This document shows positions 30,694 to 54,475 of a DNA stretch of 64,000 bases, piece after piece (the first letter of the stretch is position 1; the number at the start of each line of letters is the position of its first letter). The position numbers and the translations under genes were made by a program. The stretch is from a virus: positions 1-64,000 of the IMG/VR virus record IMGVR_UViG_3300037466_003379; one strand, written 5' to 3'. A model generated the notes under the pieces. That model had not been told where the DNA came from. It ran no database searches and saw only the letters and a list, made by a program, of their open reading frames with translations.

Positions 30694-30705
30694 CCCGGAC
30701 ACGAC

Positions 30706-30738
30706 GAAGGCCCCCGACCGATCCGGTCGGGGGCCTTC
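30706..30738. terminator. Bidirectional terminator
   Basis: gaaggcccccgaccg-atc-cggtcgggggccttc between convergent operons. Confidence 0.8.
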
Positions 30739-30751
30739 CTCATGCCCGGGG

Positions 30752-32443
30752 TCAGGCAGCCTCGCGCTGCTGCCCCGAACCCTTCACGTACGGCTTCCCG
30801 CGGCCGCCCGGCTGCGAGATCAAGCCGCCCTCTTCGAGCGCCCGCAGGTCGTTCTGGATCGTCTTCTGCGACGGCACCGGATCCCAGGTCGCGGACGCGG
30901 CGAGCACCGCGGCCAGCTTCGTCGGCCCGTCACCCACGACCTCGAGGATGAGGGCGCGCCGCCGCTCCACCGCGGACGGCTCCTCCACCACCGCAACCGG
31001 CGCAGACTGTCCGCCGTACTCCGCGGGCGTCTTCTTCGGCTCCGGATCGTCATCCGACACAGCGCCGTCCAGACGGTCCCGCCACATCGCCAGGTCGTAC
31101 CCTCCAGCCTCCGCGTCCGAGGGGTGCAGCGGCGAATCTGGGGCCGCCTGGGCGTAGCCGAACGGGTCCGCCACGACCCAGGTGCGGTGCATGGCCCGGC
31201 GCCCGTCCGGCCCGTACAGGTACGTCATGCCCTGCAGCGGGATCGTCTCCCCCGGGCGCGCCGGGTCGGGCTGAGTCTCGGGAAGCTCGTGCGGCTCGCA
31301 CCCGGCCATGCCGCCGGCGAAAGCCATGCCCTGCTCCGTGCTCGACCTCGTCTTGAAGGCGAGCACGTTGCCGGCGACCAGGCGGCGCAGGTCCGCGGAC
31401 CCCATCTCGTCCTGGCCGAGGTTCTGCCCGCACAGCACGAGCGCGACGCCGAGCGAGCGGCCGCCCTGCGCGATCTCGATGCCGAGCCGGATGGCCTCCT
31501 GCTTGAGCGCGACCCCGCCGGGCAGCTCGAGGAGCCGCTTGAGGAACTTCGGCCACTCGTCGACCACGCACCGCACGTAGCCGCGCCGCGCGAGCACCGG
31601 GTCGAAGTGCGAGATCCCGCGCCGCTGGCGGCCGCGGTCGTCGACCCACTCAAGGTTCGAGAGGTCGTACTCGCGGCGCCGCATGATCCGGACCGTGCTC
31701 CGGAGCATCCGCATGATGTTCCGCGGCGTCTCCGCGTAGTAGCCGAGAGCCTTGGACCGCTTCCACTCCGGGAAGCTGTTCCCGCCCTTCCCGTCACCGA
31801 GGAAGGTGTGGAACAGGGCGCGCTCGACACCGTCCGCGTCGACGAACCGCGGCCGCGACGTCTCGGACAGCATCGTCTGCAGGAACGCCGTCTTCCCCAT
31901 GCCCGGCGCCCCGGCGATCAGCCAGTTCACCGCGCCCGACCCCGGGATGTAGAGCTGCATGTGCGAGGTCATGCCGTCGACGTACCGGCCCGGCTTGTAG
32001 AGCCCCGTCGCCGGGTCGAACGTGAGGCCCGGCCACACCAGGTCCTCGAACAGCGGGTTCTCCTGCATCACCGTCACGACCGCGCGGGCGGCGTTCCGGT
32101 CGTGCGTCGGCCGGATGTCGACCGCATCGGCCGGCAGGAGCAGCGCGGCGGTGAGCTGCGGGGCGATGTTCATCGCCGAGCGCGTGGTCTGCCGTCCGCC
32201 TGGCGCGCACACGATCGTCGCCCGCCACCCGTCGGGGATCTGCTCGACGTCGACCAGCCGCGAGTTCGGCAGCAGCCCGTTCGGCCCCGACACGTGGGCC
32301 GCCCACTGGGCCTCCAGCCACGTCGCGTACTCGTCGAGCTCGGGCTCGAGCACGGGCGCCGGCGCGCGCAGCTCCCACCTCCGCCAGTACGGCCACGACG
32401 CCGCGGCCATGCCGAGGGCGCAGAGGGTGTCCGGATCAAGCAT
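30752..32443 (-). CDS. traB: TraB-like FtsK/SpoIIIE conjugative DNA translocase
   Basis: LIAGAPGMGKT, LGDGKGG, VVDEW, GRSLGVAL...Q, C-terminal wHTH. Confidence 0.82.
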   Translation of the reverse strand: MLDPDTLCALGMAAASWPYWRRWELRAPAPVLEPELDEYATWLEAQWAAHVSGPNGLLPNSRLVDVEQIPDGWRATIVCAPGGRQTTRSAMNIAPQLTAALLLPADAVDIRPTHDRNAARAVVTVMQENPLFEDLVWPGLTFDPATGLYKPGRYVDGMTSHMQLYIPGSGAVNWLIAGAPGMGKTAFLQTMLSETSRPRFVDADGVERALFHTFLGDGKGGNSFPEWKRSKALGYYAETPRNIMRMLRSTVRIMRRREYDLSNLEWVDDRGRQRRGISHFDPVLARRGYVRCVVDEWPKFLKRLLELPGGVALKQEAIRLGIEIAQGGRSLGVALVLCGQNLGQDEMGSADLRRLVAGNVLAFKTRSSTEQGMAFAGGMAGCEPHELPETQPDPARPGETIPLQGMTYLYGPDGRRAMHRTWVVADPFGYAQAAPDSPLHPSDAEAGGYDLAMWRDRLDGAVSDDDPEPKKTPAEYGGQSAPVAVVEEPSAVERRRALILEVVGDGPTKLAAVLAASATWDPVPSQKTIQNDLRALEEGGLISQPGGRGKPYVKGSGQQREAA

Positions 32444-32777
32444 CGGCAGCCACCCACAGAGCCCAGACCGCGGCGAAGCCGCCGAACAGAGCGGCCTCCC
32501 CGGGGTGGCGGCGCCGCATCCGGGCCTGCCCGACCAGGACGACGGCGGCGATCAGGACGAGCATCGCGACCGACCACGGCGACTGGCCGTGCCGGGCGGC
32601 GAGGCGCTCGACGAGCGTGCAGCCCCACACGAGGGCGATCCCGACGAGCGGAGCCAGGCCGCGGCGCGCACGGAACAGGCGCGACCGCAGCCGGGACATC
32701 GCGGACGGCTTCGGCTCCGGCATCTGCGGGACGACGTAGATCGGGGCGGCGGGCTTGGCCTTCGACCAGAGCGCCAC
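32436..32777 (-). CDS. Membrane protein, possibly the separated N-terminal TM part of TraB
   Basis: Three hydrophobic segments; 8-nt overlap with traB. Confidence 0.6.
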   Translation of the reverse strand: MALWSKAKPAAPIYVVPQMPEPKPSAMSRLRSRLFRARRGLAPLVGIALVWGCTLVERLAARHGQSPWSVAMLVLIAAVVLVGQARMRRRHPGEAALFGGFAAVWALWVAADA

Positions 32778-32866: not shown

Positions 32867-33931
32867 TCAGGCGGACTGATCCAGGTAGGCGTCACGCTGT
32901 GCGGCGTGCTGCGCCTCCTGGTGCGCGGCGAGCAGGTTCCCGTGCCGCATGTGCACGTTCGTCTGCACCGTCGCGGCGTGCTCCTGCAGCTCGACGAACT
33001 CGGCCAGAGACGCCGGGTCCATGTCCTTCGCCGACAGGCCCTCACCCATCGCGGCGAGGTCGGCATTGAACTGGTTCACCAGCCGGTAGAAGGCGGGGAT
33101 CGACGCGGCGTCCCGGTCGACGTTCGCGTTGGTGTTGGTCGGTGCAGTCACGGGGGTGGTCCCTTCGGTGTCAGCCGCCGGGGCGGCCGGGGAGGTGGTC
33201 GGGTCGGTCGGTTGGGAGGCGCCGTCGCCGCCCTTCGGGGTCGGTGTCGGCTGCGGTGCAGCCGGGGTCGGATCGGCCGTACGGCCCAGATCGCGGGGGC
33301 CGCTGTTCGGAGGAGTGCCGTCCGGCGTGCGGGGCCGGTTCTGGACTCCGCATGCGCACTGGTCGCACTGGCAGCCCCGGGCCCCGTCGGTGTCGCGGTC
33401 GAGCGACAGGTGCCCGCACGCCGGGCAGGTGACGCGCCGGTCGCGCCGCCGGACCGCTGCGGATCGGTGGTCGGTGCCGGGCGGGAACCGGCGGCGGTCC
33501 CACTCGGCCTGCTGCAGCTCCCGCTGCCGCCGCCGCTTCGCCGCGGTAACCGCGTCAGAGCCGTAGTCGGCCACGTCCTCGACGCGGTCACGGAACCAGG
33601 CGAGCGGGCCGCGCTTCCCGCTGGACGAGCCGAACGGCTGAGCCTGGCGCATCCGGCGCCTGGACGACGCGGCCGGCCTGGACGACGTCCAGCCTCCAGC
33701 CGTCCCGCCTCCAGGGCTGGACGTCCAGCCGGAGCTGGACGGGCTGGACGTCCTGGACGATCCAGTCCCACGGGATCCAGCCGTCCCGCCCGCCCGGGTC
33801 CGACCGGAGCTGGACGAGCTGGACGACCCGTTCCCGGTGATCAGCCCTCCAGGCGTCCCGAGGGCGTCCAGGTGTCCAGTCGCCCGCATGATCCAGTAGG
33901 CGATCAGGACGCAGCCGAAGAACGGGTCCAT
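32867..33931 (-). CDS. Transfer-region protein (low complexity, Cys cluster)
   Basis: TGATG coupling; contains CTGGACG repeats. Confidence 0.65.
   Translation of the reverse strand: MDPFFGCVLIAYWIMRATGHLDALGTPGGLITGNGSSSSSSSGRTRAGGTAGSRGTGSSRTSSPSSSGWTSSPGGGTAGGWTSSRPAASSRRRMRQAQPFGSSSGKRGPLAWFRDRVEDVADYGSDAVTAAKRRRQRELQQAEWDRRRFPPGTDHRSAAVRRRDRRVTCPACGHLSLDRDTDGARGCQCDQCACGVQNRPRTPDGTPPNSGPRDLGRTADPTPAAPQPTPTPKGGDGASQPTDPTTSPAAPAADTEGTTPVTAPTNTNANVDRDAASIPAFYRLVNQFNADLAAMGEGLSAKDMDPASLAEFVELQEHAATVQTNVHMRHGNLLAAHQEAQHAAQRDAYLDQSA
33621..33871. repeat. CTGGACG heptamer cluster (~9 plus, ~3 minus)
   Basis: Counted by eye. Confidence 0.8.
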
Positions 33932-34341
33932 CAGCGCACCGCTCCGGACACGAGGTTGGACGCCCCGTTGGACAGGCTGTGCGACGCCGTCGAGACGATG
34001 CCCGGGATGGTGCCGCCGACGCTGGCCGCGACGATCGGCAGGAGCAGCGCGGCGACGGCGGTCATGCGGGTCGCGGCGCCCTTGTGCTTCGGCCACAGGT
34101 CGTGGACGACGACGAACAGCAGCACGATGAACAGCAGCACGCCGATCCCGGCGCCGATGATTGCGCCGGCGAGGCCGAGGAACATCGACAGCAGGCTCCC
34201 CAATCCGCCACCGGCGAATGCACCCCCTGCGGCGAACCACAGAAGCGCCGTGAATTTCGGCATCTTCCGCTTCCACATCAGAAGTGCGCCGAGGACCAGG
34301 AGCACGAGCCCGGTCAGCGAGAATCCGAGTGCCTGGAGCAT
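33931..34341 (-). CDS. 4-TM Spd-like membrane protein
   Basis: Hydrophobic, coupled within tra operon. Confidence 0.65.
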   Translation of the reverse strand: MLQALGFSLTGLVLLVLGALLMWKRKMPKFTALLWFAAGGAFAGGGLGSLLSMFLGLAGAIIGAGIGVLLFIVLLFVVVHDLWPKHKGAATRMTAVAALLLPIVAASVGGTIPGIVSTASHSLSNGASNLVSGAVR

Positions 34342-34841
34342 CAGCCGGTCACCCCTCCGACGGTCTTCACGATGAGCACGAGCGCGATCAGTGCGGCCGC
34401 GACTCCGGCGCGGGCCTTCCGCTCGAACAGGAACGCGGCGAAGTACAGGACGACGGTCGCGGGAACGGACCCGACCGCGAAGGGCAGGTCGAGGAGCGCG
34501 CACTCCCAGCGGCGGCCCGCCGCCCAGGACTCGCTGACGGCCTCGCAGTGGTAGCTGAGGACCTCCGCGGGGCTCGGGGGGCGCTGCTCCCAGAACGTGC
34601 CCGCCCGGCCGTCCTCGGGGGCGCTGGGGGCCTCCCCGGTGCCGCGGTGGCCGTCCCGGAACGGGCTGGAGAGCGCGCCCCAGACGGAGCGGCCTCGCGT
34701 ACGCGTGCGCGCGGGCGCGCGCGGCCCCGCGTTGGACCCCTCGGGGGTGGGGGCCTCCGGGTTGCCGTTGCCGTTGCCGTTGCCCCCCTCCCCCGCGGGG
34801 TAGGCGGGCTGCCAGGTCGACTCGTCGGCGGTCGTGGTCAT
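34341..34841 (-). CDS. Membrane protein of tra/spd operon
   Basis: FWEQRPPSPAEV; C-terminal TMs. Confidence 0.6.
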   Translation of the reverse strand: MTTTADESTWQPAYPAGEGGNGNGNGNPEAPTPEGSNAGPRAPARTRTRGRSVWGALSSPFRDGHRGTGEAPSAPEDGRAGTFWEQRPPSPAEVLSYHCEAVSESWAAGRRWECALLDLPFAVGSVPATVVLYFAAFLFERKARAGVAAALIALVLIVKTVGGVTG

Positions 34842-35089
34842 GCTGCCGATCCCTTCGTCTCGATCGCGGCGATGAGGCCGCCGATGGTCGTGAGCGCTTC
34901 CTCGGCGAGGGCCTGGACGAGCGCGGGCGGTGCGTGGCGGATGACGGCGGCGAGGTGCTCGCCGCGGACCCGGACGGCGGCGGCCGGGTCGGGGGCCTGG
35001 GCGACCCGCTCGTCGAAGAACGTGGTCCGGCGCGTGGCCGCGGCGACGGGGCCGAGGACCTTGCCGGTGATCTTGCGCCTTCCGGGCAT
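34838..35089 (-). CDS. Hypothetical protein
   Basis: GGAG RBS, coupled. Confidence 0.6.
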   Translation of the reverse strand: MPGRRKITGKVLGPVAAATRRTTFFDERVAQAPDPAAAVRVRGEHLAAVIRHAPPALVQALAEEALTTIGGLIAAIETKGSAA

Positions 35090-35103
35090 TTCTCCGCCTT
35101 TTC

Positions 35104-35331
35104 TTATTTACCCGAAACGTAATTGCCGATAACATTTCCGCGGGAATCGAGCAATTCAAGCTCGTATTCGCCGACCCGGCCGCGGCCATCCCGACCAGCC
35201 ACGTTCTCCAGCGCCCTCCGCAGAACCTCGTCCGAGTCGCCCTTCGCGAAATCGACGTGGATCATGATTTCGCCGCGCTCGATCATGTAGCCATTTCGGC
35301 GGACCCGGCATTTCACCAGCTCGGCCGCCAT
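35104..35331 (-). CDS. Hypothetical protein, lower GC
   Basis: TGATG coupling (MAAELVKCRV). Confidence 0.55.
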   Translation of the reverse strand: MAAELVKCRVRRNGYMIERGEIMIHVDFAKGDSDEVLRRALENVAGRDGRGRVGEYELELLDSRGNVIGNYVSGK

Positions 35332-36086
35332 CACACGGCCGCCTTCGTGAGGTGCTCGTCGGCGATCTTGATCAGCCGCTTCACCGGGCCCTCGCCGAGC
35401 CCGAGCTCCTGCATCAGCTTCGTCCGGCCGAGGCCCTCTCGGCGGAGCTTCACCGCCCGCTGGATCGTCACCCGGTCGAACTCGTCCGAGTCGCCCGGGA
35501 CGTCGTCCTGGACGTCGCCGGGACGTCCAGCGTCCAGCTCGTCCAGCTCGTCCCGTCCAGCGTCCAGCTCGTCGGGGGCGGAGCCGTCCAGCTCCTCCTG
35601 CTCGTCGCCGTCCAGCTCGTCCAGGTCCGGCCGTCCAGCGTCCAGGTCCTGGACGTCCAGCCGTCCAGCGTCCAGCCGTCCAGCGTCCTGGGCCTCCGGA
35701 CCGTCCATGTGCAGGACGGTCGCCAGGACGGGAGGCGGCAGGATCGCCAGCCCGACCGACGCGACCACCCAGGCGCCGCGTCCAGCGTCCACCGCGGCGG
35801 CGGCGTGCTCCAGCGCGTTGCCGACCATCGACACGAAGATCAGCGACAGCGACAGCCGACGGCCGACGGTCCGCTCGGTCGCAGTCGAGCTGCGCCGGCG
35901 CCAGGCGATCGTCCCGGCGAGCGCGCCCGCGTCGATCAGGACGGGCACGAGCCACGCGGAGTGCTCGGCGACACCGACGCGGACCGCGAGCGCCGCCAGG
36001 GCGTCGAAGCTCAGCCACGCACAGGCGACCGCCACGGCGAGCCGCGAGAGCGCCAGCGGGGCGCGGTCAGTGATCTTGCTCCACAC
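35331..36086 (-). CDS. DUF2637/Spd-like membrane protein with C-terminal HTH
   Basis: AWLSFDAL..LA...G.....AWLVPVLIDAG; SMVGNALEH; LGRTKLMQELGLG. Confidence 0.78.
   Translation of the reverse strand: MWSKITDRAPLALSRLAVAVACAWLSFDALAALAVRVGVAEHSAWLVPVLIDAGALAGTIAWRRRSSTATERTVGRRLSLSLIFVSMVGNALEHAAAAVDAGRGAWVVASVGLAILPPPVLATVLHMDGPEAQDAGRLDAGRLDVQDLDAGRPDLDELDGDEQEELDGSAPDELDAGRDELDELDAGRPGDVQDDVPGDSDEFDRVTIQRAVKLRREGLGRTKLMQELGLGEGPVKRLIKIADEHLTKAAV
35508..35785. repeat. CGTCCAG heptamer cluster (~15 copies; reverse complement of the 33.6-kb cluster motif)
   Basis: Copies at 35524, 35531, 35540, 35554, 35561, 35585, 35609, 35618, 35632, 35639, 35654, 35662, 35669, 35677, 35779. Confidence 0.85.
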
Positions 36087-36150
36087 GGTGGAACCTCTCG
36101 GGGTTGCGTGCGCGCGGTCGCGCACGGGCGCGTGCACGCGCGAGGACGGG

Positions 36151-36555
36151 TCAGGCAGCAGCACGCCGGCGACGGCGGACGCTGCGGATCGGAATGACGG
36201 GGGCGAGGCCCTGGGAGGCCGGAGGGGTCGGGCCGACGCGGAGCCACGCCCGCAGCTCCGGGCCGATGCGGTACCGCCAGACGACGAGGAACACCGCCGT
36301 CCCACCGGACGCCCACGCCCCGGCGGTCCCACCGAGGTGCGCCAGCTCGTACGTGGACGCGGCGATCCACAGCACGCACGCCGGGGCCGGGCTCATGCCG
36401 TCTCCGATCGGAGCGACCTTCGGGACGGGCCCGAACATCCGGACCAGCCGCCGCGCGGTGAGCCGCCGGGCCGACCGGCGGACCGCTCGCAGCTCGGGGC
36501 CGTCCGGCACGTCGGCCAGGCAGCGGCCGTCCTCGTCGCGCTCGCGCTCGATCAC
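36151..36555 (-). CDS. Membrane protein
   Basis: GTGA coupling. Confidence 0.5.
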   Translation of the reverse strand: MIERERDEDGRCLADVPDGPELRAVRRSARRLTARRLVRMFGPVPKVAPIGDGMSPAPACVLWIAASTYELAHLGGTAGAWASGGTAVFLVVWRYRIGPELRAWLRVGPTPPASQGLAPVIPIRSVRRRRRAAA

Positions 36556-37469: not shown

Positions 37470-37472
37470 CCG

Positions 37473-38036
37473 ATGGGTGAGCTGCTCGATGTGCAGGGCC
37501 TGGTCGACGTGCTGAACGAGGGCTCCAGCTCCTCCGGTGACGTGATCTTCCGGCTGGAGCAGATCCCTGAGTACACGGTCGAGTCCGACGGCGGCGACTT
37601 CCAGGCGTGGTCCCGCGGCGTCCGGGAGCCGAACTGGGACCGCAAGCGCGGCTACACGGACCTCCTGGAGGCCCGCACCGCAGCCGGGGTCACCTCGCAG
37701 CGCGTGCGCGTCTTCTCGCCGAACCTGACCGACTACGAGCGCTACGCCTGCGAGTGGGGCTACGCGATCAACGGCCAGTACGGCGAGGACATCCGCGTGC
37801 TGCACCGCGGCGAGCATCGCGTGCCGCCGCTCCTCGGCTTCGACTACTGGCTCCTCGGCCGCGAGACCGTGGTGCGCATGCACTACGACGAGGTCGGTCG
37901 CTTCTGCGGCGCCGAGCTGGCGCCCGAGCTGCTCCGCCAGGTCCTCCGCGAGCGCGACGCGCTGTGGCAGGTCGCGGAGCCGTTCGACACCTGGTACCAG
38001 CAGCACCCCGAGTTCAGACGGCGATTGGCGGCCTGA
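37473..38036 (+). CDS. DUF6879-like protein
   Basis: FRLE..PEY, RVRV...LTDYERY, GEDIR, DYWL...VVRMHYDE.GRF.G. Confidence 0.8.
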   Translation: MGELLDVQGLVDVLNEGSSSSGDVIFRLEQIPEYTVESDGGDFQAWSRGVREPNWDRKRGYTDLLEARTAAGVTSQRVRVFSPNLTDYERYACEWGYAINGQYGEDIRVLHRGEHRVPPLLGFDYWLLGRETVVRMHYDEVGRFCGAELAPELLRQVLRERDALWQVAEPFDTWYQQHPEFRRRLAA

Positions 38037-38042
38037 CCTGCG

Positions 38043-38894
38043 ATGACAGACAGCACTGCGGAGGAGCGGTCCGAGCGGAAGTTCGGGCCGCTCCTTCGTG
38101 CTGCACGGGAGGCGGCCGAGCTCCGCCAGCGGGACGTCGCGGACCGCAGCGGCATCCCGCAGACCCGGCTGTCCCGCATGGAGAAGGACCCGCCGCTGGC
38201 CATGCCCACGCCGGAGCAGGCTCGCACGCTGGCCGACCTCTACCAGCTCGACGACGATGACCGCGCGTTCATCCTCCAGGCCGCAGACGACCACGCAGGC
38301 CGGAAGGACCGCCGCTATCACGTCATGGCCGGGACGAACGTCCTCAGCACGCAGCGGCTGTTCACGCTCCTCGAGCGGGAGGCCAAGCGTCTCCGGGCCT
38401 TCTCTGCCGGCGTCGTCCCCGGATCCGCGCAGACACCCCGGTACGTCGCCGCGATCATGGGCGAGGACGACGAGGCCGGGCCCAGCACGCAGGCGCGGCT
38501 CCCCCGGCTGATCGGGCATCCGGCGAACGCCGGCAAGCAGTACGAGCTGGTCCTCACCGAGTCGGCCGCCGTCATCGCGCTCGCCGCGGACAACGTGATG
38601 GCCGAGCAGTTCGAGGAGCTGGTCCGTCTCTCGGAGCGCCCGAACGTCGACCTCCGGATCATCCGGCGCGGTACGCGGCTCACGCCCTGGACGGTCCCCG
38701 CCATCACCATCTACGACGACGGCCCGGTGGTCCTCGGCCAGCTCCTCGACGGGTACATCCGGTTCGACGAGGGCGAGGACCTCGCCACGAAGTACATCGC
38801 CGAGTTCGAGCGACTGCAGGCCGCGGCGGCAGGTGGCGACGAGGCACGCGAGGCACTCCGGGACATCGCAGCCTGGTATCGGTCGCGGGATTGA
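38043..38894 (+). CDS. XRE-HTH + DUF5753 regulator
   Basis: LRAAREAAELRQRDVA..SGI....LSRME; VPG..QT..Y; LSERPNVDLRII. Confidence 0.85.
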   Translation: MTDSTAEERSERKFGPLLRAAREAAELRQRDVADRSGIPQTRLSRMEKDPPLAMPTPEQARTLADLYQLDDDDRAFILQAADDHAGRKDRRYHVMAGTNVLSTQRLFTLLEREAKRLRAFSAGVVPGSAQTPRYVAAIMGEDDEAGPSTQARLPRLIGHPANAGKQYELVLTESAAVIALAADNVMAEQFEELVRLSERPNVDLRIIRRGTRLTPWTVPAITIYDDGPVVLGQLLDGYIRFDEGEDLATKYIAEFERLQAAAAGGDEAREALRDIAAWYRSRD

Positions 38895-39364: not shown

Positions 39365-39640
39365 CTGACCTGCGTGTTGCACTGCAACATCGCGACATAG
39401 GAACACCCGCACACTGCGACGGCGTCACGGTGTGCGGGTGTTCTGCTGTTGCGGCGTTGCTCTGTCGCGTTGTGCCCCTGTCGCACCGCGACTCCGTTGC
39501 GGTGTTGCTGCGACACGCCGTTGCGCTGTGCGCCTGTCGCACCGTCACAGTGCTGCTACGTTGCCCAGCGACACTGCGACACCCGAACAGAGCAACGGTG
39601 TGCCACCCACACACCGTGTCGCTGTGCCACTGCAACACGA
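39365..39640. repeat. Degenerate ~8-bp-period TGTTGC/TGTCGC/GCAACA/GCGACA array (candidate parS-L)
   Basis: Dense repeats directly upstream of parA. Confidence 0.7.
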
Positions 39641-39674
39641 CCCCAACGCGCCCGACCCGACCCCGAGGTGATCA

Positions 39675-40463
39675 GTGCCTGCCGAGACGATCTGCATGGC
39701 GAACTTCAAGGGCGGGGTCGCGAAGTCGACGACGTCCGTCAACGTGGCCGCCACGCTCGCCCAGCGCGGCCATCGGACGCTCCTGGTCGACTGCGACCCG
39801 CAGGCCAACTCCAGCGAGATGTTCCTCGACGAGGACGCCATCGAGATGGACCTCCGCTCGATCATCGTCGAGAAGGAGGAGACCGAGAAGGTCATCCAGC
39901 AGACGCGGATCGGGAACCTCGACGTCCTGCCGGCCAGCTTCGACCTGGCGTTCCTGGACAAGGAACTCGTCGTGTCGCCGAACGGCGTGCAGCGCATCGA
40001 CCGCGCGCTCCGGCCCGTCCGCGAGCTGTACGACTACATCGTGATCGACACCGGCCCGAACCTGTCGCACCTGACGCTGGGCGCGCTCGCCGCGTCCCAG
40101 CACGTCGTCATCCCGGTCTCCGCGACCGTGTGGGCGTCGAAGGGGCTGCTCAAGTTCGTCCGGTGGATCGACGGCAACCGCGACGAGGAGGTGCTCGCCG
40201 CCGAGCTTCTCGGCCTCGTCGCGACGATCGTGCAGCCGAGCACCCGGATCGGGCGCGCCCTGCTCGAGGACCTGCCGCAGTCGGGCATGCCGAGCTTCCG
40301 CACCTTCATCCCGCGGCGGATCAAGGCTGAGGACGCCGTTATGGACCGGCTCGTCGTGGGGGAGCCTGGCGTCGACATCAGCCTCACCACGGCCTATCAG
40401 GATCTGACGACCGAGCTGGTCGAGCGGATCGCGAAGGCGAAGGGGCCACGCCATGCCCGGTAA
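39675..40463 (+). CDS. parA: ParA partition ATPase
   Basis: NFKGGVAKST, LLVDCDPQAN, YDYIVIDTGP. Confidence 0.93.
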   Translation: MPAETICMANFKGGVAKSTTSVNVAATLAQRGHRTLLVDCDPQANSSEMFLDEDAIEMDLRSIIVEKEETEKVIQQTRIGNLDVLPASFDLAFLDKELVVSPNGVQRIDRALRPVRELYDYIVIDTGPNLSHLTLGALAASQHVVIPVSATVWASKGLLKFVRWIDGNRDEEVLAAELLGLVATIVQPSTRIGRALLEDLPQSGMPSFRTFIPRRIKAEDAVMDRLVVGEPGVDISLTTAYQDLTTELVERIAKAKGPRHAR

Positions 40464-40877: not shown

Positions 40878-40896
40878 GGAGCGGTATAATGGCCCA

Positions 40897-40992
40897 GCGT
40901 GACTAGCCCTAGCGCGGAACCCAGATCCGACCTTCTCGCGCAGTCACTCCAGGACCACTCGGCCCCGGCCTCTACGGAGGTCGGGGCCTTTT
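40897..40992 (+). ncRNA. Candidate ~95-nt small RNA or attenuator leader
   Basis: TATAAT at 40885-40890, GTGACT/AGTCAC stem, terminator ggccccggcctc-tacg-gaggtcggggcc-tttt (40961-40992). Confidence 0.45.
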
Positions 40993-41114
40993 CGTTAGCG
41001 GCCGTAACCAACCGCCCACAGCGGACGATCAACTACCCGAACGCCGCCCGAGCCGTTGACACCCCCAGCGGCCCGAAGCGTGCTCCCCGGCACCTGAAAG
41101 TGAGTTACCCCCCG

Positions 41115-42659
41115 ATGGCTCACCCTGCTCTGCCCATGCCCGAACGCGCCGAATCCCCGTCCGGCCGCCACCACCGCCCCGAGATCTCCATCCCGGCCCA
41201 GCGCGCCGCGGCCGAGGACATCACCCAGGCGATCCCGAAGGTCCGCGCCGACTGGCGCGAGGCGCCCACTACGCGCTTCCCAGCCGTCCAGCGGCTGGTC
41301 GAGGTGACCCGCGCGCTGCCGCGCGTCCCTCGCGGCGTCGCGCTGCGCCGGCCGAACCTGGAGACCGAGGTGACGGTCAAGGCGAACCCGTGGCTCGTCG
41401 CCTTCCTGTTCGCCGTCGTCGGCGCCGCCGCAGCCGCATGGTTCTCGTGGCGCGGAGCCCCGTCCTGGTCGATCTACGGCATCGCCGTCTCGGTCCTCCT
41501 CGGCGCGAAGCTGCTGCTGTCGCTGCTCCCGCCGCCCCGCTGGGAGCCCGCCCCCGAGGGGAAGCGGGTCTGCGTCGTCGTCCCGATCTTCAACGAGGAC
41601 CCCGAGATCCTCGCCCGCTGCCTCGCCTCGATCGACGCCCAGACTTACCAGCCGACCCACGTCCGGATCATCGACGACGGCTCCTCCGCCCCCGAGGCCC
41701 ACAACTACGCGATCCAGTGGGCGATGGACCGCGCCAACGCCCGCGTGATCTTCCAGCACAACGCCGGCAAGCGTGAGGCGATGGGGCAGGCGTTCCGCGA
41801 GCTCGGCGAGCAGGTCGACCTGTTCGTGTGCGTCGACTCCGACACGGTCCTCGAGCCCGAGGCCATCCGCGAGGGCCTCGCCCCGTTCTCGGACCCGCGC
41901 ACCGCCGCCGTCACCGGCACCGTCGTCGCCCTCAACCAGGACCGCGGCCTGCTGCCCGGCCTGCTCGACCTGCGGTACGTCAACGCCTTCCTCTACGAGC
42001 GGGCCGCCTACAGCCGCCTCGGCTCCGTCCTCTGCGTGTGCGGCTCCCTGGCGATCTGGCGGGCGGACATCGTCCGCGCCCACCTCGACGACTTCCTCGG
42101 CCAGCAGTTCCTGGGGGAGCCCTGCTCGTACGGCGACGACCGGCACTTGACGAACCTGTCGCTACTGCACGGCCGCGTCGTCCTCGCGCACAAGGCGATC
42201 GCGCGCACCGCCGTGCCAGAGAAGGGCGGGCACCTGATCCGCCAGCAGGTCCGGTGGGGCCGCTCCTTCTTCCGCGAGTCCCTGTGGGCGCTGCGGAACC
42301 TGGGGCCGAAGCGCGCCGCCTGGTGGCTGTCCGCCCTGGAGTCCGTGTCCTGGGCCGGGTTCACCGTCGGCATGATGTTGTCCCTGTTCGTCCTGCCGGC
42401 GATCAGCGGGCAGGCTCACTGGCTGGACTACCTGGGCTGGGTGTTCCTCGCCGGGTACGGCCGCTCGGTGCACGTCTTCTCGGTGCGGCGCACCAGCTGG
42501 GCGCGCTGGCGGCAGGCCGCGATCTTCCTCCTCGCCCCGGCCTACGGGATGATCCACGTCCTCGTGCTGCTGCCGCTGCGGCTCTACTCCCTCGCCACGC
42601 TCCGCGCGACGAGCTGGGGCACCCGCTCCGGCGGCGTCGAGGTCGCCGAGACGGCCTGA
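41115..42659 (+). CDS. GT2 processive glycosyltransferase, hyaluronan synthase/NodC-like
   Basis: VPIFNED, IIDDGS, NAGKREA, VDSDT, CGSL, YGDDRHLTN, QQVRW, SWGTR; TM helices; start chosen after GAAAGTGAG. Confidence 0.88.
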   Translation: MAHPALPMPERAESPSGRHHRPEISIPAQRAAAEDITQAIPKVRADWREAPTTRFPAVQRLVEVTRALPRVPRGVALRRPNLETEVTVKANPWLVAFLFAVVGAAAAAWFSWRGAPSWSIYGIAVSVLLGAKLLLSLLPPPRWEPAPEGKRVCVVVPIFNEDPEILARCLASIDAQTYQPTHVRIIDDGSSAPEAHNYAIQWAMDRANARVIFQHNAGKREAMGQAFRELGEQVDLFVCVDSDTVLEPEAIREGLAPFSDPRTAAVTGTVVALNQDRGLLPGLLDLRYVNAFLYERAAYSRLGSVLCVCGSLAIWRADIVRAHLDDFLGQQFLGEPCSYGDDRHLTNLSLLHGRVVLAHKAIARTAVPEKGGHLIRQQVRWGRSFFRESLWALRNLGPKRAAWWLSALESVSWAGFTVGMMLSLFVLPAISGQAHWLDYLGWVFLAGYGRSVHVFSVRRTSWARWRQAAIFLLAPAYGMIHVLVLLPLRLYSLATLRATSWGTRSGGVEVAETA

Positions 42660-42664
42660 GAACG

Positions 42665-42710
42665 ACGAAGAGGCCCCCGGCCGCCGTGTGGCGGCCGGGG
42701 GCCTCTTCGT
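42665..42710. terminator. Bidirectional terminator, 21-bp stem
   Basis: acgaagaggcccccggccgcc-gtgt-ggcggccgggggcctcttcgt. Confidence 0.85.
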
Positions 42711-43787
42711 TCAGCGCTCGTACTCGATGCCCAGGTGCAGGCCGCCCGGTGCCGCGTAGCGGGCCACGAGGAACGTGCACCAGCCCGGGAGCGGCTGCGC
42801 GGGCAGCGACAGGTTCCCGATCAGCGGAGCGTTCACCACCAGGTTCTTCACCTGCGGCGTCCGGTAGGTGATGTCGGTGAAGTAGAAGACCCGCAGGTAC
42901 TCCAGGAACCCGGACGGCTTGAGACGACCCGTCGAGTCCACGGCTTCCTGGCCACCGGCCCATCCGCACGTGATGCTCGAGACCGAGCCGTTCCCGCGCC
43001 AGCCTCCGCCGCCTGGCACCGCCGGGACGAGCGCGCTGTGGACCTCGCCGGAGCGCGGCCACTGGGCGGGGTCGAGGTCCTGCCACCGGCCACCGGCCGG
43101 GTCGGCCGGGTAGTCGGTGGCGGGGAAGCTGATGAGCGCCACGGCGTCCTCCGAGCTGCGGCCCGCCGGACCGGCGGGCGATGGTTGTGGGGGAGCGAAG
43201 GCCGGGTACTGGCCGTAGTTGTCGGCCCGGATCTGGTCGACGTCGCACTGGACGCCGCCCACGTTCGTTGTGCCGACCTGCTGGTAGAGCTGGGAGCGGT
43301 CGTCGATGTGCCCGTACTGCCATCCGGCGGCGGACCAGCCGAAGGTGGCGTAGCCGCGGTCCAGGGCGTCGGAGATGACGGAGCGGCCGCCGTAGACGCC
43401 GAGCTTCGCGACGCCGACGACGGAGCCACAGCCGTCCGCGTAGGCGCGGGCCAGCGGGAGATCCTTCGTGACGACGTCCTCGTCGAAGGCGAAGTACACG
43501 CAGCCGACCCGCCCCCAGTCGAGCCCGAGGTCGGCGAGGTGCGCCTTCACTGCCTGGGCGTCAGCGACCCCGCGAGCTCGGCCGCCGCGCCACGACCCGG
43601 TGGTGTCCTCGTAGACGAGGATCAGCTCCAGCCCGTTCGCGAGGTAGTCGGACACCTGCTCGGCGCTGGGCGCCTTCCGCCGGCCCGGGGTGCCCACGTA
43701 GAGCGCGATCGCCCGATAGCCCGCGGCGCGGACCTGGGCGCCGGTCGGATGGCCGACGCAGTCGATCGCGAGGCCGACGACGCTCAC
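42711..43787 (-). CDS. Endolysin, DUF1906/Rv2525c-like glycoside hydrolase
   Basis: GL.LILVYE, G.ADAQA, VYFAFDED, GVYGG, LYQQ....VGGVQCDVD; adjacent to holin. Confidence 0.8.
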   Translation of the reverse strand: MSVVGLAIDCVGHPTGAQVRAAGYRAIALYVGTPGRRKAPSAEQVSDYLANGLELILVYEDTTGSWRGGRARGVADAQAVKAHLADLGLDWGRVGCVYFAFDEDVVTKDLPLARAYADGCGSVVGVAKLGVYGGRSVISDALDRGYATFGWSAAGWQYGHIDDRSQLYQQVGTTNVGGVQCDVDQIRADNYGQYPAFAPPQPSPAGPAGRSSEDAVALISFPATDYPADPAGGRWQDLDPAQWPRSGEVHSALVPAVPGGGGWRGNGSVSSITCGWAGGQEAVDSTGRLKPSGFLEYLRVFYFTDITYRTPQVKNLVVNAPLIGNLSLPAQPLPGWCTFLVARYAAPGGLHLGIEYER

Positions 43788-44194
43788 CGATCACCGTCCT
43801 GGGTCGTGGCCGGCGGAGCGGCCGTCAGCTGCGGGCAGTAGTAGACGGCGCCGCTGTCGGTGGCGTAGCAGTCGCCGACCTTCACGCCGACGTGGATGTG
43901 CACGACCGGCGCCGGGACGGCGACGACCTCGTGCTGCACGACCGGGGCGACCTCGCCGACCGGGGTCGCGAGCCGCACGGTCGGGGCCGCGTCCGGGCGG
44001 CCCTGCCACAGCCCGAGGTCGGCGCCGAGGAAGGCGACGGACACGAGCGCCAGCAGCACCAGTCCAGCGGCGCCACCAGCGAGCAGATGAGGGGGCCGGA
44101 GGCTCCGCGACGCGAAACCCCGGCGGGAGTGCCTGGGGGACAACTGGGCCGCCTTCCGGAGGGGTTGGGGCCGTCGGGTCCGCGCCCTCTCCAC
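43784..44194 (-). CDS. Membrane protein of lysis cassette
   Basis: Single TM; coupled to endolysin. Confidence 0.5.
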   Translation of the reverse strand: MERARTRRPQPLRKAAQLSPRHSRRGFASRSLRPPHLLAGGAAGLVLLALVSVAFLGADLGLWQGRPDAAPTVRLATPVGEVAPVVQHEVVAVPAPVVHIHVGVKVGDCYATDSGAVYYCPQLTAAPPATTQDGDR

Positions 44195-44221
44195 ACGGAC
44201 CCGACGGCGATCATGGGACGC

Positions 44222-44602
44222 CTACTCGGCGGCGGCCGCGGCGGAGAGCACCGCGATCTGGGCTGCCGTCTGCCCGGAGGCGGGAACGGCGGGGAACTCG
44301 ACGGTCGCCGGACCGGACGGCGCCGCAGGTACGTTGCCGACGGCGACGTCCGCGGGGGCGACCACGGTCGGTGCGACCGGGGCCGCTGGTGGGGCCTGGG
44401 CGCCGGCCAGCGCGGAGATCCGCACCCCGGCGACCTTGAGCAGGCACAGCAACGCGGCCGTGCCGCCCCCGGCGAGCGCGGCCCGCCAGTCGAACGTGTG
44501 CAGCTCGACCGCTGTCCCTCCGGCGGTGATTGCGCCGGCGAGGGACTGCACGAACGTCCAGCCGACGCGCTCGGCCAGGTCGATCCACGGCTTGGTGGTC
44601 AT
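44222..44602 (-). CDS. Holin (r1t-like)
   Basis: W.DLAERVGWTFVQS...DWRAALAGG.TAALL.LLK. Confidence 0.78.
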   Translation of the reverse strand: MTTKPWIDLAERVGWTFVQSLAGAITAGGTAVELHTFDWRAALAGGGTAALLCLLKVAGVRISALAGAQAPPAAPVAPTVVAPADVAVGNVPAAPSGPATVEFPAVPASGQTAAQIAVLSAAAAAE

Positions 44603-45039
44603 GACGGGTCGGGCTCCTTCCGGGGTGCCGTCCGCCGCCTGCGAGGCTTCGGCGCGGCCGGGGGCTCTGGGGTGTCGAACAGGCCTTCGGGGATCACCCC
44701 GTCGGGCACGGACACGGCCGGGGCCGGGGGGACGTCGCCGCCGAGGCCGCGGATCCGGTCGATGAGGGTCCGCAGGTATTCCCGCAGCCAGGCGATCTCT
44801 GCGCGCAGCGCGTTCTCCCGGCGGGCGAACTTCGCGCGCTCGGTCTCGACCAGCCCGGACCAGTAGGCGACTTCCTCCCGCAGCACGGGCAGTAGGGAGA
44901 CGGCGGTCTTCACGGCGTCGGCGTCGGACTTCGACCGGGCCGCGCGGCGCTTCGCTCCGATGGTGAACAGGGCCGAGATCCCGGCCGCGCCACCGAGTGC
45001 ACCGAACACCTGGCTGGCCTGGTCGGCGATTCCGCTCAC
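44599..45039 (-). CDS. TM + coiled-coil lysis-region protein
   Basis: N-terminal TM, coiled coil, PP.P tail. Confidence 0.65.
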   Translation of the reverse strand: MSGIADQASQVFGALGGAAGISALFTIGAKRRAARSKSDADAVKTAVSLLPVLREEVAYWSGLVETERAKFARRENALRAEIAWLREYLRTLIDRIRGLGGDVPPAPAVSVPDGVIPEGLFDTPEPPAAPKPRRRRTAPRKEPDPS

Positions 45040-45497
45040 GGGCTTTCTCCGAGCTCAGGTGGAGGGCGCAGCTTCTCCACCCGGTAGTCGAGCGAGTGCG
45101 AGATGTGCAGCACGGCGACGGCGAAGTAGACGATCGGCCCGGTCAGGGCTGCGTGCGGGTCGTGCCGGACGGCCTCGATGAGCGCGATTGACCACAGCAG
45201 GTACAGGACGCCGCCGAAGGTGAACGCCCAGCGCAGCGGCCGGAGCCCGGCACCACGCCCGGCGAGCATCGACGCCGCGAGCGCCCCGAACACCAGCCCC
45301 CAGGTCGTGGCGCCGCCGTACTGGCGGATCACCGCGAAGGACGGGCCTGCGACGCGGAGCGGGTCCCCGGCGAGCAGCACCCACGCCATTCCCGTCGCGG
45401 CGGCGCCGAGCGCGAGCCAGCCGCGGCGCAGGACGTCCTTCTCGTCCCACACGGCATCCACGTCCGGGGCGACGTCGAGCACCCGGGGGAGCTTCAC
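45036..45497 (-). CDS. 4-TM membrane protein
   Basis: Hydrophobic, coupled. Confidence 0.65.
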   Translation of the reverse strand: MKLPRVLDVAPDVDAVWDEKDVLRRGWLALGAAATGMAWVLLAGDPLRVAGPSFAVIRQYGGATTWGLVFGALAASMLAGRGAGLRPLRWAFTFGGVLYLLWSIALIEAVRHDPHAALTGPIVYFAVAVLHISHSLDYRVEKLRPPPELGESP

Positions 45498-45970
45498 TGG
45501 GTGGCCACCGGGGTGACGGGCGGCCGCGGGGCCGGAACGACCGTGGCGACCTGCCAGTCGTAGTCACCCCGCAGGCAGCTCCGGCTGTCCGGATGCCGGT
45601 TCGGCCAGGCGATCTCGACGACCCGGTAGTGGGTGCCGCCGAGCTCGATCTCCTGGCCCTCGATCAGCGGCGCCGGTAGCGCTGTCTCGGCGAGCCGGGC
45701 GCCCGTCTCGTCGACGACCCGCACCTTCGCGGGCGGGGTGCCGTCGACGAGACGGATCCCCTCGACCGCCGTCGCGACCTCCGGTTCGGACTCCACGACC
45801 AGCTCAGCGGAGGCGCCGTCCTCGGCGACGACGACGTCGAGCAGCGTGTGCTGCCAGGTCGGGTCGAGGCCGGGCAGGGTGATCCGGGTGCGGAGCAGCC
45901 CGTCGAACGAGTCGGGATTGAACAGGCCGGGGCCGTCCGCGTAGACGGTCACGCGCGTCGTGAGGGTCAT
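45494..45970 (-). CDS. Hypothetical protein
   Basis: Coupled. Confidence 0.65.
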   Translation of the reverse strand: MTLTTRVTVYADGPGLFNPDSFDGLLRTRITLPGLDPTWQHTLLDVVVAEDGASAELVVESEPEVATAVEGIRLVDGTPPAKVRVVDETGARLAETALPAPLIEGQEIELGGTHYRVVEIAWPNRHPDSRSCLRGDYDWQVATVVPAPRPPVTPVATQ

Positions 45971-45983
45971 CTCGGGGGGCCTT

Positions 45984-46562
45984 TCAGGAGTACGGGGCGT
46001 CCCAGGCGACGACCATCCAGGTCCCGCCGAGCGCGGTGTCCGACGACAGGGAGGCGCCGGTGTTCTGCAGCGCGCCGCCGCGGATCACGGTCCCGGCGGT
46101 GAACCGCTCGTAGAGGTGGGCCTCGACGTACACGTGCCCCGAGGCGGCCATGACCTCGTCGCCCATCGCGGCGATGTTCCCGGGGTTCGACGTGCCGTTG
46201 ACCATGATCGCGGCGCAGCGGATCCCGGAGGAGCCGGACACGAAGCCGACGTGCAAGCAGATCTCGTACCAGCCCGCCGTCTGGATCGTGACCGTCGTGC
46301 CGCCGGCGGTCGCCATGCTGTCGGTGTCGAGGACCTCGTTGTCCCACGTGATCGTGTTCGGGGTCGATGTGATCGAGCCCGTCGCGAAGTTGTGCGCGTT
46401 GCTGGTCAGGTAGCACATCGGCTTCGTGGACGCCCCCGAGGCGAGGGTGCGGCCCAGCGTGTTCTGCGCCAGCGTGTCGACGTTCGTGCGCAGGTTCGAC
46501 AGGTCCGTCGCGGTGACGAGGACGCCGTCGGTGAAGGTCGGGGGAGCGGACAGCGCCGACAT
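45984..46562 (-). CDS. Minor tail/fibre protein, paralog 3
   Basis: Shared PxF.xG, I.TxGWY, W.APY motifs. Confidence 0.75.
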   Translation of the reverse strand: MSALSAPPTFTDGVLVTATDLSNLRTNVDTLAQNTLGRTLASGASTKPMCYLTSNAHNFATGSITSTPNTITWDNEVLDTDSMATAGGTTVTIQTAGWYEICLHVGFVSGSSGIRCAAIMVNGTSNPGNIAAMGDEVMAASGHVYVEAHLYERFTAGTVIRGGALQNTGASLSSDTALGGTWMVVAWDAPYS

Positions 46563-46575
46563 CGGGGCTCCTCGG

Positions 46576-47166
46576 TCAGTAGGGGGCGTGCCAGGCGCAC
46601 GTCCACCACGTGCCCCAGGAGCCGACGGAGTTGTTCGTGGTGAGGTTCAGCGACGCCCCGGAGTTCTGAAAGACGCCGACGTAGAGCGACGCCCCGGCCT
46701 GCAGGTGCTCGTAGGCCACGACCTGGTGGTGGTAGGCGCTGGTGGAGCCCAGGTTCTGCGTCGTCGTCGCGACGACGTTCAGCGGGTCCGCGATGCCGTT
46801 GATGAGGATCTGCACGACCCGCTCGGACGCGGCCGCGGACGCCCACCACGCCTGGGCCATGATCCGGTACCAGCCAGGCGTCTGGATCACCATGTGATCG
46901 GCGGGGGAGCCCGGCCACATGCCGTCGTTGTCGAAGACGACGTTATTCCAGGTGACGATCTGGTTCGTGCCGCCCGCCCCGGTCGGGACGGAGAAGTTGC
47001 TGGTCAGGTTGACCTTGCAGATCGGCTTCGTGGAGTAGCCCGCCGAGGCGGGCTTGCCCAGCAGGTTCTGCGACAGCGCGTCGAGGTTGAAGGACAGCCG
47101 GTTCAAGTCGGCCTGTCCGACGAGCGTGCCGTCGACGAACGTCGGGTTGGCGATGGTGGCGGGCAC
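46576..47166 (-). CDS. Minor tail/fibre protein, paralog 2
   Basis: Same motifs. Confidence 0.75.
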   Translation of the reverse strand: MPATIANPTFVDGTLVGQADLNRLSFNLDALSQNLLGKPASAGYSTKPICKVNLTSNFSVPTGAGGTNQIVTWNNVVFDNDGMWPGSPADHMVIQTPGWYRIMAQAWWASAAASERVVQILINGIADPLNVVATTTQNLGSTSAYHHQVVAYEHLQAGASLYVGVFQNSGASLNLTTNNSVGSWGTWWTCAWHAPY

Positions 47167-47184
47167 GCCGGCCTCCGCTCTCGA

Positions 47185-47793: not shown

Positions 47794-47808
47794 GGTGCCC
47801 CTCCAGGC

Positions 47809-50688: not shown

Positions 50689-50712
50689 GGCTCAAGCCCC
50701 CGATCTGTTCGG

Positions 50713-51324: not shown

Positions 51325-51599
51325 GCGGTCTCCCAGTCGTCAGGGCGGCCGATCGGGCAGCCGTAGTGGTCGGCGAGCGCCCGGGCGAGCTCAGGGGAGT
51401 CGGACTCCACCCACGCCGGCGCAGCCGCGGTGGAGTGGACGCGCCACAGCCCGAGGAGCGGGCCGCCGCTGTCGTGGGCGACGGTCTGGACCTGCTCGGT
51501 CAGCGTGTAGCTGTCGGGGATGTGCGCGACCGTGACCTGCTTGCCGAGCGGCTGACCGCGGTCGACGGCGGCCGGGTTGCCGAGGTGAACGGTGGGCAT
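51321..51599 (-). CDS. Hypothetical protein
   Basis: Coupled; PAWVESD. Confidence 0.65.
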   Translation of the reverse strand: MPTVHLGNPAAVDRGQPLGKQVTVAHIPDSYTLTEQVQTVAHDSGGPLLGLWRVHSTAAAPAWVESDSPELARALADHYGCPIGRPDDWETA

Positions 51600-51651
51600 G
51601 CGTCGGGTCCTTTCCCGGGCGGAGAGGGGCTGGAGCAGGGGACCGCCGGGG

Positions 51652-53163: not shown

Positions 53164-53206
53164 GCTGCCTCGCTTACTTTCTTGCAGGTGCAGGAGGGGG
53201 CGCGCG

Positions 53207-53668: not shown

Positions 53669-53684
53669 GGCGCCCTCCTTCGGT

Positions 53685-54416: not shown

Positions 54417-54475
54417 GGCCCACACCTCCCTTCGTGCTCGAGGTGGGGGCCGTGGCGGTCAGCCACAGGCTGAGG

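Follow-up and report, generated by a model that had tools for sequence, protein, structure and literature searches.

Two dense blocks of the word CTGGACG, inverted relative to each other and lying wholly within codons, are very probably docking sites for a protein in a 104-kb phage-plasmid of a high-GC actinomycete. The best explanation of these arrays is that they serve the TraB/Spd DNA-transfer module of the element as cis-acting docking sites, overprinted on two disordered linkers that tolerate almost any protein sequence; the candidate readers are the TraB pump and the neighbouring DUF2637 membrane protein. The window analysed was a 64,000-nt stretch of the whole record, which comprises 104,105 bp with a GC3 of ~0.93 and combines the tape measure gene of a tailed phage (54879-58661) with ParA and a tra gene, the gene content of a phage-plasmid.

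Two inverted arrays of one word within coding sequence

An earlier note on this DNA had described two opposed CTGGACG clusters in coding sequence, with palindromes in both, and these observations were confirmed. The arrays and the genes that carry them are as follows.

32867..33931, minus strand: Ser-rich Spd-like ORF of 354 aa, host of array 1, delimited by GC3 frame analysis; no Pfam family
33621..33871, plus strand: array 1, with 9 CTGGACG on the plus strand and 3 inverted; palindrome CTGGACGTCCAG at 33717-33728; dense core 33621-33825
35331..36332, minus strand: DUF2637 membrane protein gene, host of array 2 (Pfam PF10935, 27.5 bits against a cut-off of 22.8)
35508..35785, minus strand: array 2, with 15 CTGGACG on the minus strand and 2 inverted; palindrome CTGGACGTCCAG at 35649-35660; dense core 35524-35683

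CTGGACG was found 68 times in the 64,000-nt window, against 21.05 +/- 4.5 copies expected from dinucleotide shuffles (largest 36), and 29 of the 68 fall in these two blocks. As CGTCCAG, it is the top locally clustered 7-mer of the 104,105-bp record (16 copies within 250 bp); 12 copies fall in cluster 1 by itself and the best unrelated 7-mer of the record reaches 8, so that each array singly exceeds every other 7-mer cluster in 104 kb and both top clusters are formed by the same word. No third CTGGACG cluster was present in the record. The core word is the 8-mer GCTGGACG, its leading G (position -1) being found in 19 of the 24 major-orientation copies, and about 30 copies are spread over the two genes beside traB. 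Same-orientation repeats number 9 in 205 bp in array 1 and 15 in 160 bp in array 2, the latter with 13 perfect 8-mers against 6 with one mismatch and with perfect heptamers covering 64% of the 160-bp core. The spacers between copies differ while the heptamer core stays perfect. The arrays lie 1.2 kb (array 1) and 3.1 kb (array 2) upstream of the traB start, inside codons, and are separated by ~1.7-1.8 kb. Because the two host genes share the minus strand, the arrays are truly inverted relative to each other and the word is read in three registers. In the sense direction of the DUF2637 gene array 2 is read as L-D-x (n=9) and as A-G-R (n=6; GCT GGA CGx), while array 1 runs antisense to the Spd-like ORF, in its Ser/Gly/Thr-rich linker, and is read as x-S-S.

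That selection acts on the DNA word and not on the peptides, as the earlier note had proposed, is supported by these three registers, by rare codons and by synonymous resampling. In each of the six A-G-R copies Ala is encoded by GCT and Gly by GGA, codons that account for ~5% of those for Ala and Gly in the record. Synonymous resampling (3000 runs each) yielded 1.15 copies for array 1 (maximum 5) against the 9 seen and 4.09 for array 2 (maximum 9) against the 15 seen; this shortfall supports a signal on the DNA itself.

Arrays of this kind could also have arisen with no cis function at all. A unit (GAGCTGGAC / CTGGACGCTGGACGG) would have started in one low-complexity linker, expanded by replication slippage, and entered a second permissive linker by ectopic recombination as an inverted copy, too recently to have decayed. 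Both arrays do lie in disordered, insertion-tolerant linkers, and repetitive linkers are general among DUF2637 proteins. TRF reported repeat units of 7, 9, 15, 45 and 54 bp, and the two arrays, which share the unit GAGCTGGAC, have inverted matches of 19 nt (perfect) and 25 nt (at 92%), as common descent would leave. The close relative described below lacks both arrays, which indicates that they are dispensable for the proteins. However, this history needs several coincidences, namely an inverted copy in frame, free of stops and within the same operon, followed by a second expansion. It also sits poorly with a perfect heptamer core between varied spacers, with AT-ending rare codons that persist at this GC3 and with one word forming both top clusters of 104 kb, and we consider it unlikely.

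Several other identities for the arrays were rejected. A partition centromere was dismissed because a different array, of GCGACA/GTTGC words and devoid of GCTGGACG, sits at 39374-39640 directly upstream of parA (39672-40463) and is itself par centromere-like. Repressor operators of this record are 17-bp palindromes at 15.2 kb. KOPS-like guide words, an analogy drawn in the earlier note, could not be upheld, as word orientation shows no skew outside the clusters (10 plus/10 minus to the left, 11 plus/7 minus to the right). A phase-variable heptamer tract was set aside since at most two copies stand head to tail and the frame is always restored. A scan for promoters and terminators gave no useful result.

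The transfer module and its candidate readers

The remaining features of the module, from the 3' end of traB to the genes enclosed by the arrays, are listed below; L010 denotes the close relative.

30694..30750, no strand assigned: hairpin with 27-nt arms, directly after traB
30752..32443, minus strand: TraB-like dsDNA translocase of 563 aa, with a predicted FtsK motor followed by a C-terminal winged HTH
32436..32777, minus strand: small membrane ORF of 113 aa, overlapping the traB start; same arrangement in L010
33931..35334, minus strand: genes between the arrays, in an order kept in L010
33931 to about 34341, minus strand: membrane ORF
34341-34841, minus strand: orf167
34838-35089, minus strand: orf83
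35107-35334, minus strand: orf75

The translocase gave a Pfam FtsK_SpoIIIE match under the cut-off (22 against 24 bits), and its AF2 model (pLDDT 91) was matched by Foldseek to the FtsK motor 2ius (E 3.6e-15). Its winged HTH, modelled at residues 491-555 (encoded at ~30779-30973) with pLDDT >90, comprises helices 491-503, 510-517 and 526-538, the last being the recognition helix, and a beta wing at 542-554. TraB-like relatives numbered 376, with Streptomyces plasmid TraBs being 25-30% identical. The plasmid TraB matches align from about their own residue 150, and the 113-aa ORF probably supplies the membrane anchor found in the extra N-terminal ~150 residues of plasmid TraBs. The hairpin is probably the operon terminator. 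No repeat array was seen downstream of traB, and a clt directly after traB was rejected, with the hairpin alone there.

The DUF2637 gene has a called product of 277 aa (start 36164) with helical membrane segments, an acidic repeat linker, which carries array 2 and is predicted to be disordered in the AF2 model, and a C-terminal three-helix HTH. The HTH fold is confidently predicted for residues 231-277 (pLDDT ~89; encoded at ~35334-35474), which resemble the HTH domains of sigma region 4, LuxR and recombinases (Z 4-5, rmsd ~2 A over 47 residues). Pfam searches with the C-terminal tails returned sub-threshold matches only. The Ser-rich ORF occupies the position of a 290-455-aa ORF in plasmid modules.

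We rank first, tentatively and by a narrow margin, the reading in which the arrays are recognised by the DUF2637 HTH. This domain, joined by an acidic tether of ~70 residues to a polytopic membrane domain, would bind the word copies of array 2, in the gene that encodes it, and those of array 1 in the Spd-like gene. In this way it would hold the DNA of the transfer operon against the membrane, next to the TraB pore, and possibly loop the 1.7 kb between the arrays. We infer the binding, the tethering and any role in transfer or spreading from the confident model of an HTH on a disordered linker, from the linkage of DUF2637 genes with word arrays in relatives, and by analogy with two spread proteins. 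SpdA2 of pIJ101 binds a site within its own gene (PMC4170104), and SpdB2 of pSVH1 is described as an integral membrane DNA-binding protein that interacts with TraB (PMC4170104, PMC4447253). Against DUF2637 as reader, array 1 sits in another gene, closer to traB; TraB would be left without a visible clt in 104 kb; and the published precedent for arrays of 7-9-bp repeats is TraB/TraA rather than a DUF2637 protein.

Distribution of the arrays among related elements

TraB searches of genome, viral and metagenome contigs recovered a single close related element (L009-L012), with no TraB relatives in the genome contigs. A word-index search likewise gave one TraB relative, and none when the DUF2637 protein was used. 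In this relative (L009/L010/G001) TraB is 50% identical and the gene order orf75-orf83-orf167-membrane ORF-Spd-like-small membrane ORF-TraB is kept, without the DUF2637 gene, the Ser-rich insert or any strong array in the 56.7 kb examined; no comparable array was found near its traB in 8 kb upstream and 1.3 kb downstream. Its Spd-like homologue aligns on both sides of the array-1 insert in the same frame, the insert being missing, and the recognition helix region of its TraB winged HTH differs at several positions, a comparison drawn from this one close relative. Two weak clusters in the relative were not accepted as arrays: GGACGTC represents ordinary traB codons for E-D-V, and GTCGGCGAGC, downstream, was judged an ordinary codon word. 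The earlier note had named conservation of the peptides rather than the heptamer in relatives as a possible refutation; the single close relative conserves neither.

That TraB and the gene order persist in a relative lacking both the arrays and DUF2637 points to DUF2637 as the reader; with one close relative only, this co-absence is a single observation. The relative also bears on the suggestion that the word is read by some other DNA-binding protein, of host or element origin. An XRE-type regulator encoded with DUF6879 adjoins the transfer module (37470-38894), and such a pair is found beside the module in L010 and L013 too. L010, however, has the pair yet no arrays, and the regulator operators of the record are intergenic palindromes, not 15-copy direct arrays within codons. 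A variant of the same suggestion dispenses with a protein and has the inverted arrays pair with each other as a long-range duplex around the four enclosed genes, in the polycistronic mRNA or in DNA. The arrays are indeed complementary over 19-25 nt within one transcription unit, but an RNA duplex needs no single 8-mer in many copies. We regard another reader, or action at this other level, as very unlikely.

In seven plasmids the order from DUF2637 to TraB is found with DUF2637 heading the module. Five of the homologues are annotated DUF2637; those of L014 and L015 are annotated hypothetical protein and are 20-26% identical to the five. Among Streptomycetaceae plasmids that carry this module, arrays of CGTTTCG, phased at 21 bp, extend over the promoter and first codons of the DUF2637 gene. 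This array, together with an in-gene excess of the inverted word, is confined to one DUF2637 type, and it occurs with TraB type T1 or T2, which are 30% identical and differ in their wHTH helices. Plasmid pPZG101 is a mosaic with a breakpoint at the DUF2637 gene end. Sequence comparison suggests that, in Streptomyces plasmids with this module, a DUF2637 gene and the arrays it carries are exchanged as one cassette, regardless of the type of TraB. The tracking of one DUF2637 type by the CGTTTCG arrays, whichever TraB is present, favours DUF2637 as reader. In-gene arrays are inherited by plain linkage, and the cassette argument is therefore weaker than true covariation would be; two plasmid DUF2637 types, moreover, have no clear array. 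An intergenic array of four GCTGTGAC with a 12-bp period follows the TraB block (T2) in plasmids. Direct searches from our element returned no match for blastn of the region against plasmids, for tblastn of DUF2637 against plasmids and phages, or for TraB against phages, and no relative of more than 30% TraB identity was found in the phage or plasmid collections.

The earlier note had taken the clusters for the clt locus of TraB. On that reading the 8-bp word would be a TRS to which the TraB winged HTH binds, and TraB hexamers would be loaded at the two inverted blocks to move double-stranded DNA from hypha to hypha. Its setting in a TraB/Spd-type transfer module, with the arrays within the traB operon, stood up, as did an FtsK motor fold with a C-terminal winged HTH, as modelled. 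Published clt loci offer an analogy in being arrays of 7-9-bp direct repeats bound by TraB/TraA, and the word here is 8 bp and densely packed. With the other arrays of the record explained (the 15.2-kb operators and the 39.4-kb par array), these are the only clt candidate in 104 kb. The assignment to TraB itself fared less well. No comparable array accompanies the 50% identical TraB of the relative; the arrays stand upstream of traB and not at its 3' end, where there is the hairpin alone; the in-gene DUF2637 arrays of plasmids ignore TraB type, travelling with the DUF2637 gene beside TraBs that are 30% identical, whereas it is the intergenic GCTGTGAC array that follows the TraB block; and the word lacks orientation skew beyond the clusters. 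We therefore place recognition by TraB second, as a possible but doubtful reading. A more elaborate, bipartite clt could be envisaged, in which TraB would be loaded on the inverted arrays in opposite orientation, as two hexamers or as one complex with the DUF2637 tether, and would pump dsDNA through the pore as a loop. With its sites hidden in linker codons the element would need no non-coding clt. This proposal appears quite improbable to us.

Implications and comparison with known systems

To our knowledge, double-strand DNA conjugation by TraB is understood for a few small plasmids only. If docking words routinely lie in the linker codons of transfer genes, searches of non-coding DNA alone will miss them, and such hidden words would explain the apparent absence of clt from many elements; a clt is still undescribed for AICEs such as pSAM2 (PMC9513070). 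The arrays provide a clean case of dual coding, with one 8-mer in three registers that can be recoded synonymously with the proteins unchanged. They also raise the question of whether the DNA for transfer is selected by a membrane-anchored DUF2637-HTH protein, acting in place of TraB or jointly with it. Because the element is both a tailed phage and equipped with a partition system, the answer has a bearing on whether such phages can spread without virions as well. The bipartite clt, if true, would for the first time allow the movement of an unprocessed replicon from hypha to hypha by a ring translocase to be approached at the level of sequence.

In gene content the element resembles Streptomyces plasmid-phages such as pZL12 (cited in PMC3583192), with tailed-phage genes, ParA and a tra gene; in sequence, no relative above 30% TraB identity was found in the phage and plasmid collections. 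Among clt loci of Streptomyces, that of pSVH1 has the 8-bp TRS, that of pJV1 nine 9-bp repeats plus inverted repeats, and that of pWTY27 7-bp repeats lying partly inside traA and reaching 16 bp into it; inverted elements are present in the clt of pJV1 and pIJ101 (PMC3583192, PMC4447253). Our arrays share with these the grouping of a 7-9-bp word in a transfer region, on an element whose TraB is FtsK-like and has a predicted C-terminal winged HTH. In contrast, the Streptomyces clt is mostly non-coding and at or near the traB 3' end, while here ~30 copies form two inverted, wholly coding blocks in three registers, 1.2-3.1 kb upstream of traB, and the TraB of the closest relative is not accompanied by such an array.

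The sps site of pIJ101, which is not needed for the SpdA2 amino-acid sequence as such, offers an analogy in that the site of a spread-region protein lies inside its own coding sequence, as candidate array 2 would within the DUF2637-HTH gene. However, sps consists of one short palindrome, and SpdA2 is small, soluble and involved in stability (PMC4170104), whereas our element carries dozens of copies in direct orientation, a second array in another gene and a protein with a predicted HTH that is anchored in the membrane. SpdB2 of pSVH1 offers another analogy to the DUF2637 protein: belonging to the transfer/spread module, it is integral to the membrane and both binds dsDNA and interacts with TraB. 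Its binding is reported as non-specific, and its description includes no site array. For chromosomal motors, the FtsK gamma domain reads KOPS and SpoIIIE reads SRS. The likeness to our arrays lies in a polar 8-bp word and a winged HTH ending an FtsK-type motor; KOPS, however, occur throughout the replicon and with skewed orientation, while here the word is confined to two blocks.

The transfer operon and the nature of the element

GC3 frame analysis and ORF lists placed the genes from DUF2637 through to TraB in a single minus-strand operon, with the following members.

36332/36164-35331, minus strand: DUF2637 gene
Between the DUF2637 gene and the Ser-rich ORF, minus strand: orf75, orf83, orf167 and a membrane ORF
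35107-35334, minus strand: orf75 (75 aa), directly 3' of the DUF2637 gene
33931-32867, minus strand: Ser-rich Spd-like ORF
32436-32777, minus strand: membrane ORF of 113 aa, overlapping the start of traB by 8 nt
32443-30752, minus strand: TraB, followed by a hairpin

The DUF2637 protein has helical membrane segments and an acidic linker that is predicted to be disordered. Its C-terminus forms a three-helix HTH (pLDDT ~89), which superposes on the HTH domains of sigma region 4, LuxR and recombinases (Z 4-5). Pfam support for TraB was weak; its AF2 model was confident (pLDDT 91) and combines an FtsK motor (2ius, E 3.6e-15) with a winged HTH at the C-terminus (residues 491-555). Some 150 N-terminal residues present in plasmid TraBs are absent, and L010, part of the related element L009-L012, is arranged likewise with a separate overlapping membrane ORF. 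TraB may be split, with the 113-aa membrane ORF supplying its membrane anchor.

The element L009-L012, whose TraB is 50% identical, was the only close relative found. It keeps the gene order orf75, orf83, orf167, membrane ORF, Spd-like ORF, small membrane ORF and TraB, and both the DUF2637 gene and the Ser-rich insert are missing from it. A second insert missing from the L010 homologue is a Cys-rich stretch of the Ser-rich ORF (CPACGH...CQCDQCACG, 33280-33370, residues ~190-220), possibly a zinc ribbon. The GC content of orf75 is clearly lower, and it shares 47% identity with its L010 counterpart (5330-5545). A DUF6879 gene and an XRE/DUF5753 regulator pair (37470-38894) adjoin the transfer module, as is also seen in L010 and in the plasmid L013.

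Genes for a tape-measure protein, a GH46 tail protein, ParA and a UvrD-like helicase are also present, which makes the record a phage-plasmid-like element of an actinomycete with 72% GC. Its tail/lysis region (40890-58661) encodes a GT2 glycosyltransferase, an Rv2525c-like hydrolase, a CBM-bearing 960-aa protein, a GH46 chitosanase domain protein and a 1260-aa tape-measure protein. Given this content, the element is both a tailed phage and a plasmid-like replicon.

Two CTGGACG arrays within coding sequence

The 64-kb window contains 68 copies of CTGGACG, where dinucleotide-preserving shuffles give 21 +/- 4.5. Of the 68 copies, 29 fall within two blocks, of opposed orientation as an earlier note had described.

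33621-33871: array 1, nine CTGGACG copies on the plus strand and three on the minus strand
35508-35785: array 2, 15 CTGGACG copies on the minus strand and two on the plus strand

Each array holds one CTGGACGTCCAG palindrome. Across the full IMG/VR record of 104,105 bp, which begins with the 64-kb window, no other 7-mer came close to the local clustering of CGTCCAG (16 copies/250 bp); array 1 by itself, with 12 copies, exceeded any unrelated word (maximum 8), and no third cluster of the word was present. As G occupies position -1 in 19 of 24 aligned copies, the core is the 8-mer GCTGGACG. Perfect 8-mers outnumber one-mismatch copies in array 2 (13 versus six), and 64% of its 160-bp core consists of perfect heptamers.

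Since both host genes lie on the minus strand, the word is read in three ways.

CTG GAC Gxx: L-D-x, nine copies
GCT GGA CGx: A-G-R, six copies
Antisense xCG TCC AGx: x-S-S/R, nine copies

GCT and GGA each make up only ~5% of the Ala and Gly codons, respectively, in the record. When synonymous codons were redrawn with the proteins unchanged (3000 runs), array 1 yielded 1.15 copies (maximum 5) against nine observed, and array 2 yielded 4.09 (maximum 9) against 15. Moreover, the Ser-rich segment is an insert missing from the related element's homologue, which aligns in the same frame on either side. The three registers, the rare codons, the resampling and this missing insert together support a DNA-level reading, and with it the earlier proposal of selection on the DNA word rather than on the peptides. 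The arrays share inverted matches (19 nt perfect and 25 nt at 92%), which is consistent with recent slippage and inverted duplication devoid of function; we consider this origin unlikely. Summed over its possible readers, a cis-acting docking array is the probable role.

Arrays in Streptomycetaceae plasmids

The DUF2637-to-TraB module is present in seven Streptomycetaceae linear plasmids. Three of these carry seven to eight CGTTTCG copies, phased at 21 bp, that span the DUF2637 promoter and the initial codons of the gene (xVSx repeats), with inverted CGTTTCG in excess inside the DUF2637 gene itself.

L013 3739-4076; L016 1065-1256; L018 349-677: CGTTTCG array

These three share one DUF2637 type, whereas their TraBs form two groups, only 30% identical, with differing wHTH helices. 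The module of pPZG101 (L018, NZ_MZ502219; 315-9418) is a mosaic with a breakpoint at 2463-2650, where the DUF2637 gene ends: its DUF2637 cassette matches NZ_CP108855 at 82% identity, and the remainder up to TraB matches NZ_CP106800 at 76%. A separate array tracks the TraB block, comprising four intergenic GCTGTGAC copies with 4-bp spacers (12-bp period) and one further copy.

L017 3552-3588 (+3726); L018 3070-3106 (+3267); L019 3189-3226 (+3313): GCTGTGAC array, after a 90-aa ORF

The Streptomyces plasmids bearing it have one TraB type in common, and it is a candidate for a genuine clt. The plasmids show that arrays of the DUF2637 gene coexist with unrelated TraB tails, although physical linkage alone could account for part of this cassette pattern and so weakens it as evidence.

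Candidate readers of the word

The earlier note had proposed the arrays as a bipartite clt for TraB. TraB and TraA do bind clt loci made of arrays of 7-9-bp repeats, which mostly lie close to, or right at, the tra gene's 3' end (PMC3583192, PMC4447253, PMC4170104), and the GCTGGACG arrays are the only clt candidate in the record, since the remaining arrays are otherwise accounted for. At 15180-15340, between divergent ORFs, a 17-bp palindrome (GGTCCCGCTCTGGGACC and variants) is present five times and looks like a repressor operator array, and dense GCGACA/GTTGC-type words of alternating orientation at 39374-39640, directly upstream of parA (39672-40463), are a candidate partition centromere distinct from GCTGGACG. 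However, no strong word array was found in the 56.7 kb of L009-L012 analysed, the plasmid DUF2637-gene arrays coexist with divergent TraB groups, traB starts 1.2 and 3.1 kb downstream of the arrays, and CTGGACG shows no orientation skew outside them. The precedent and the sole candidacy stand in favour of a TraB clt, which we regard as possible but less likely than not.

Ranked first, tentatively, is the DUF2637 HTH as the proposed reader: it would bind the word copies and so would hold the element's DNA at the membrane next to the TraB pore. TraB as reader follows closely, then absence of function and, as a very improbable last, some other reading. The DUF2637 and TraB readings are compatible, because the spread proteins of pSVH1 interact with TraB (PMC4447253). 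The published clt of pWTY27 and the sps/SpdA2 site are precedents for placing sites in transfer genes, and thus the arrays would not be a wholly new kind of site.
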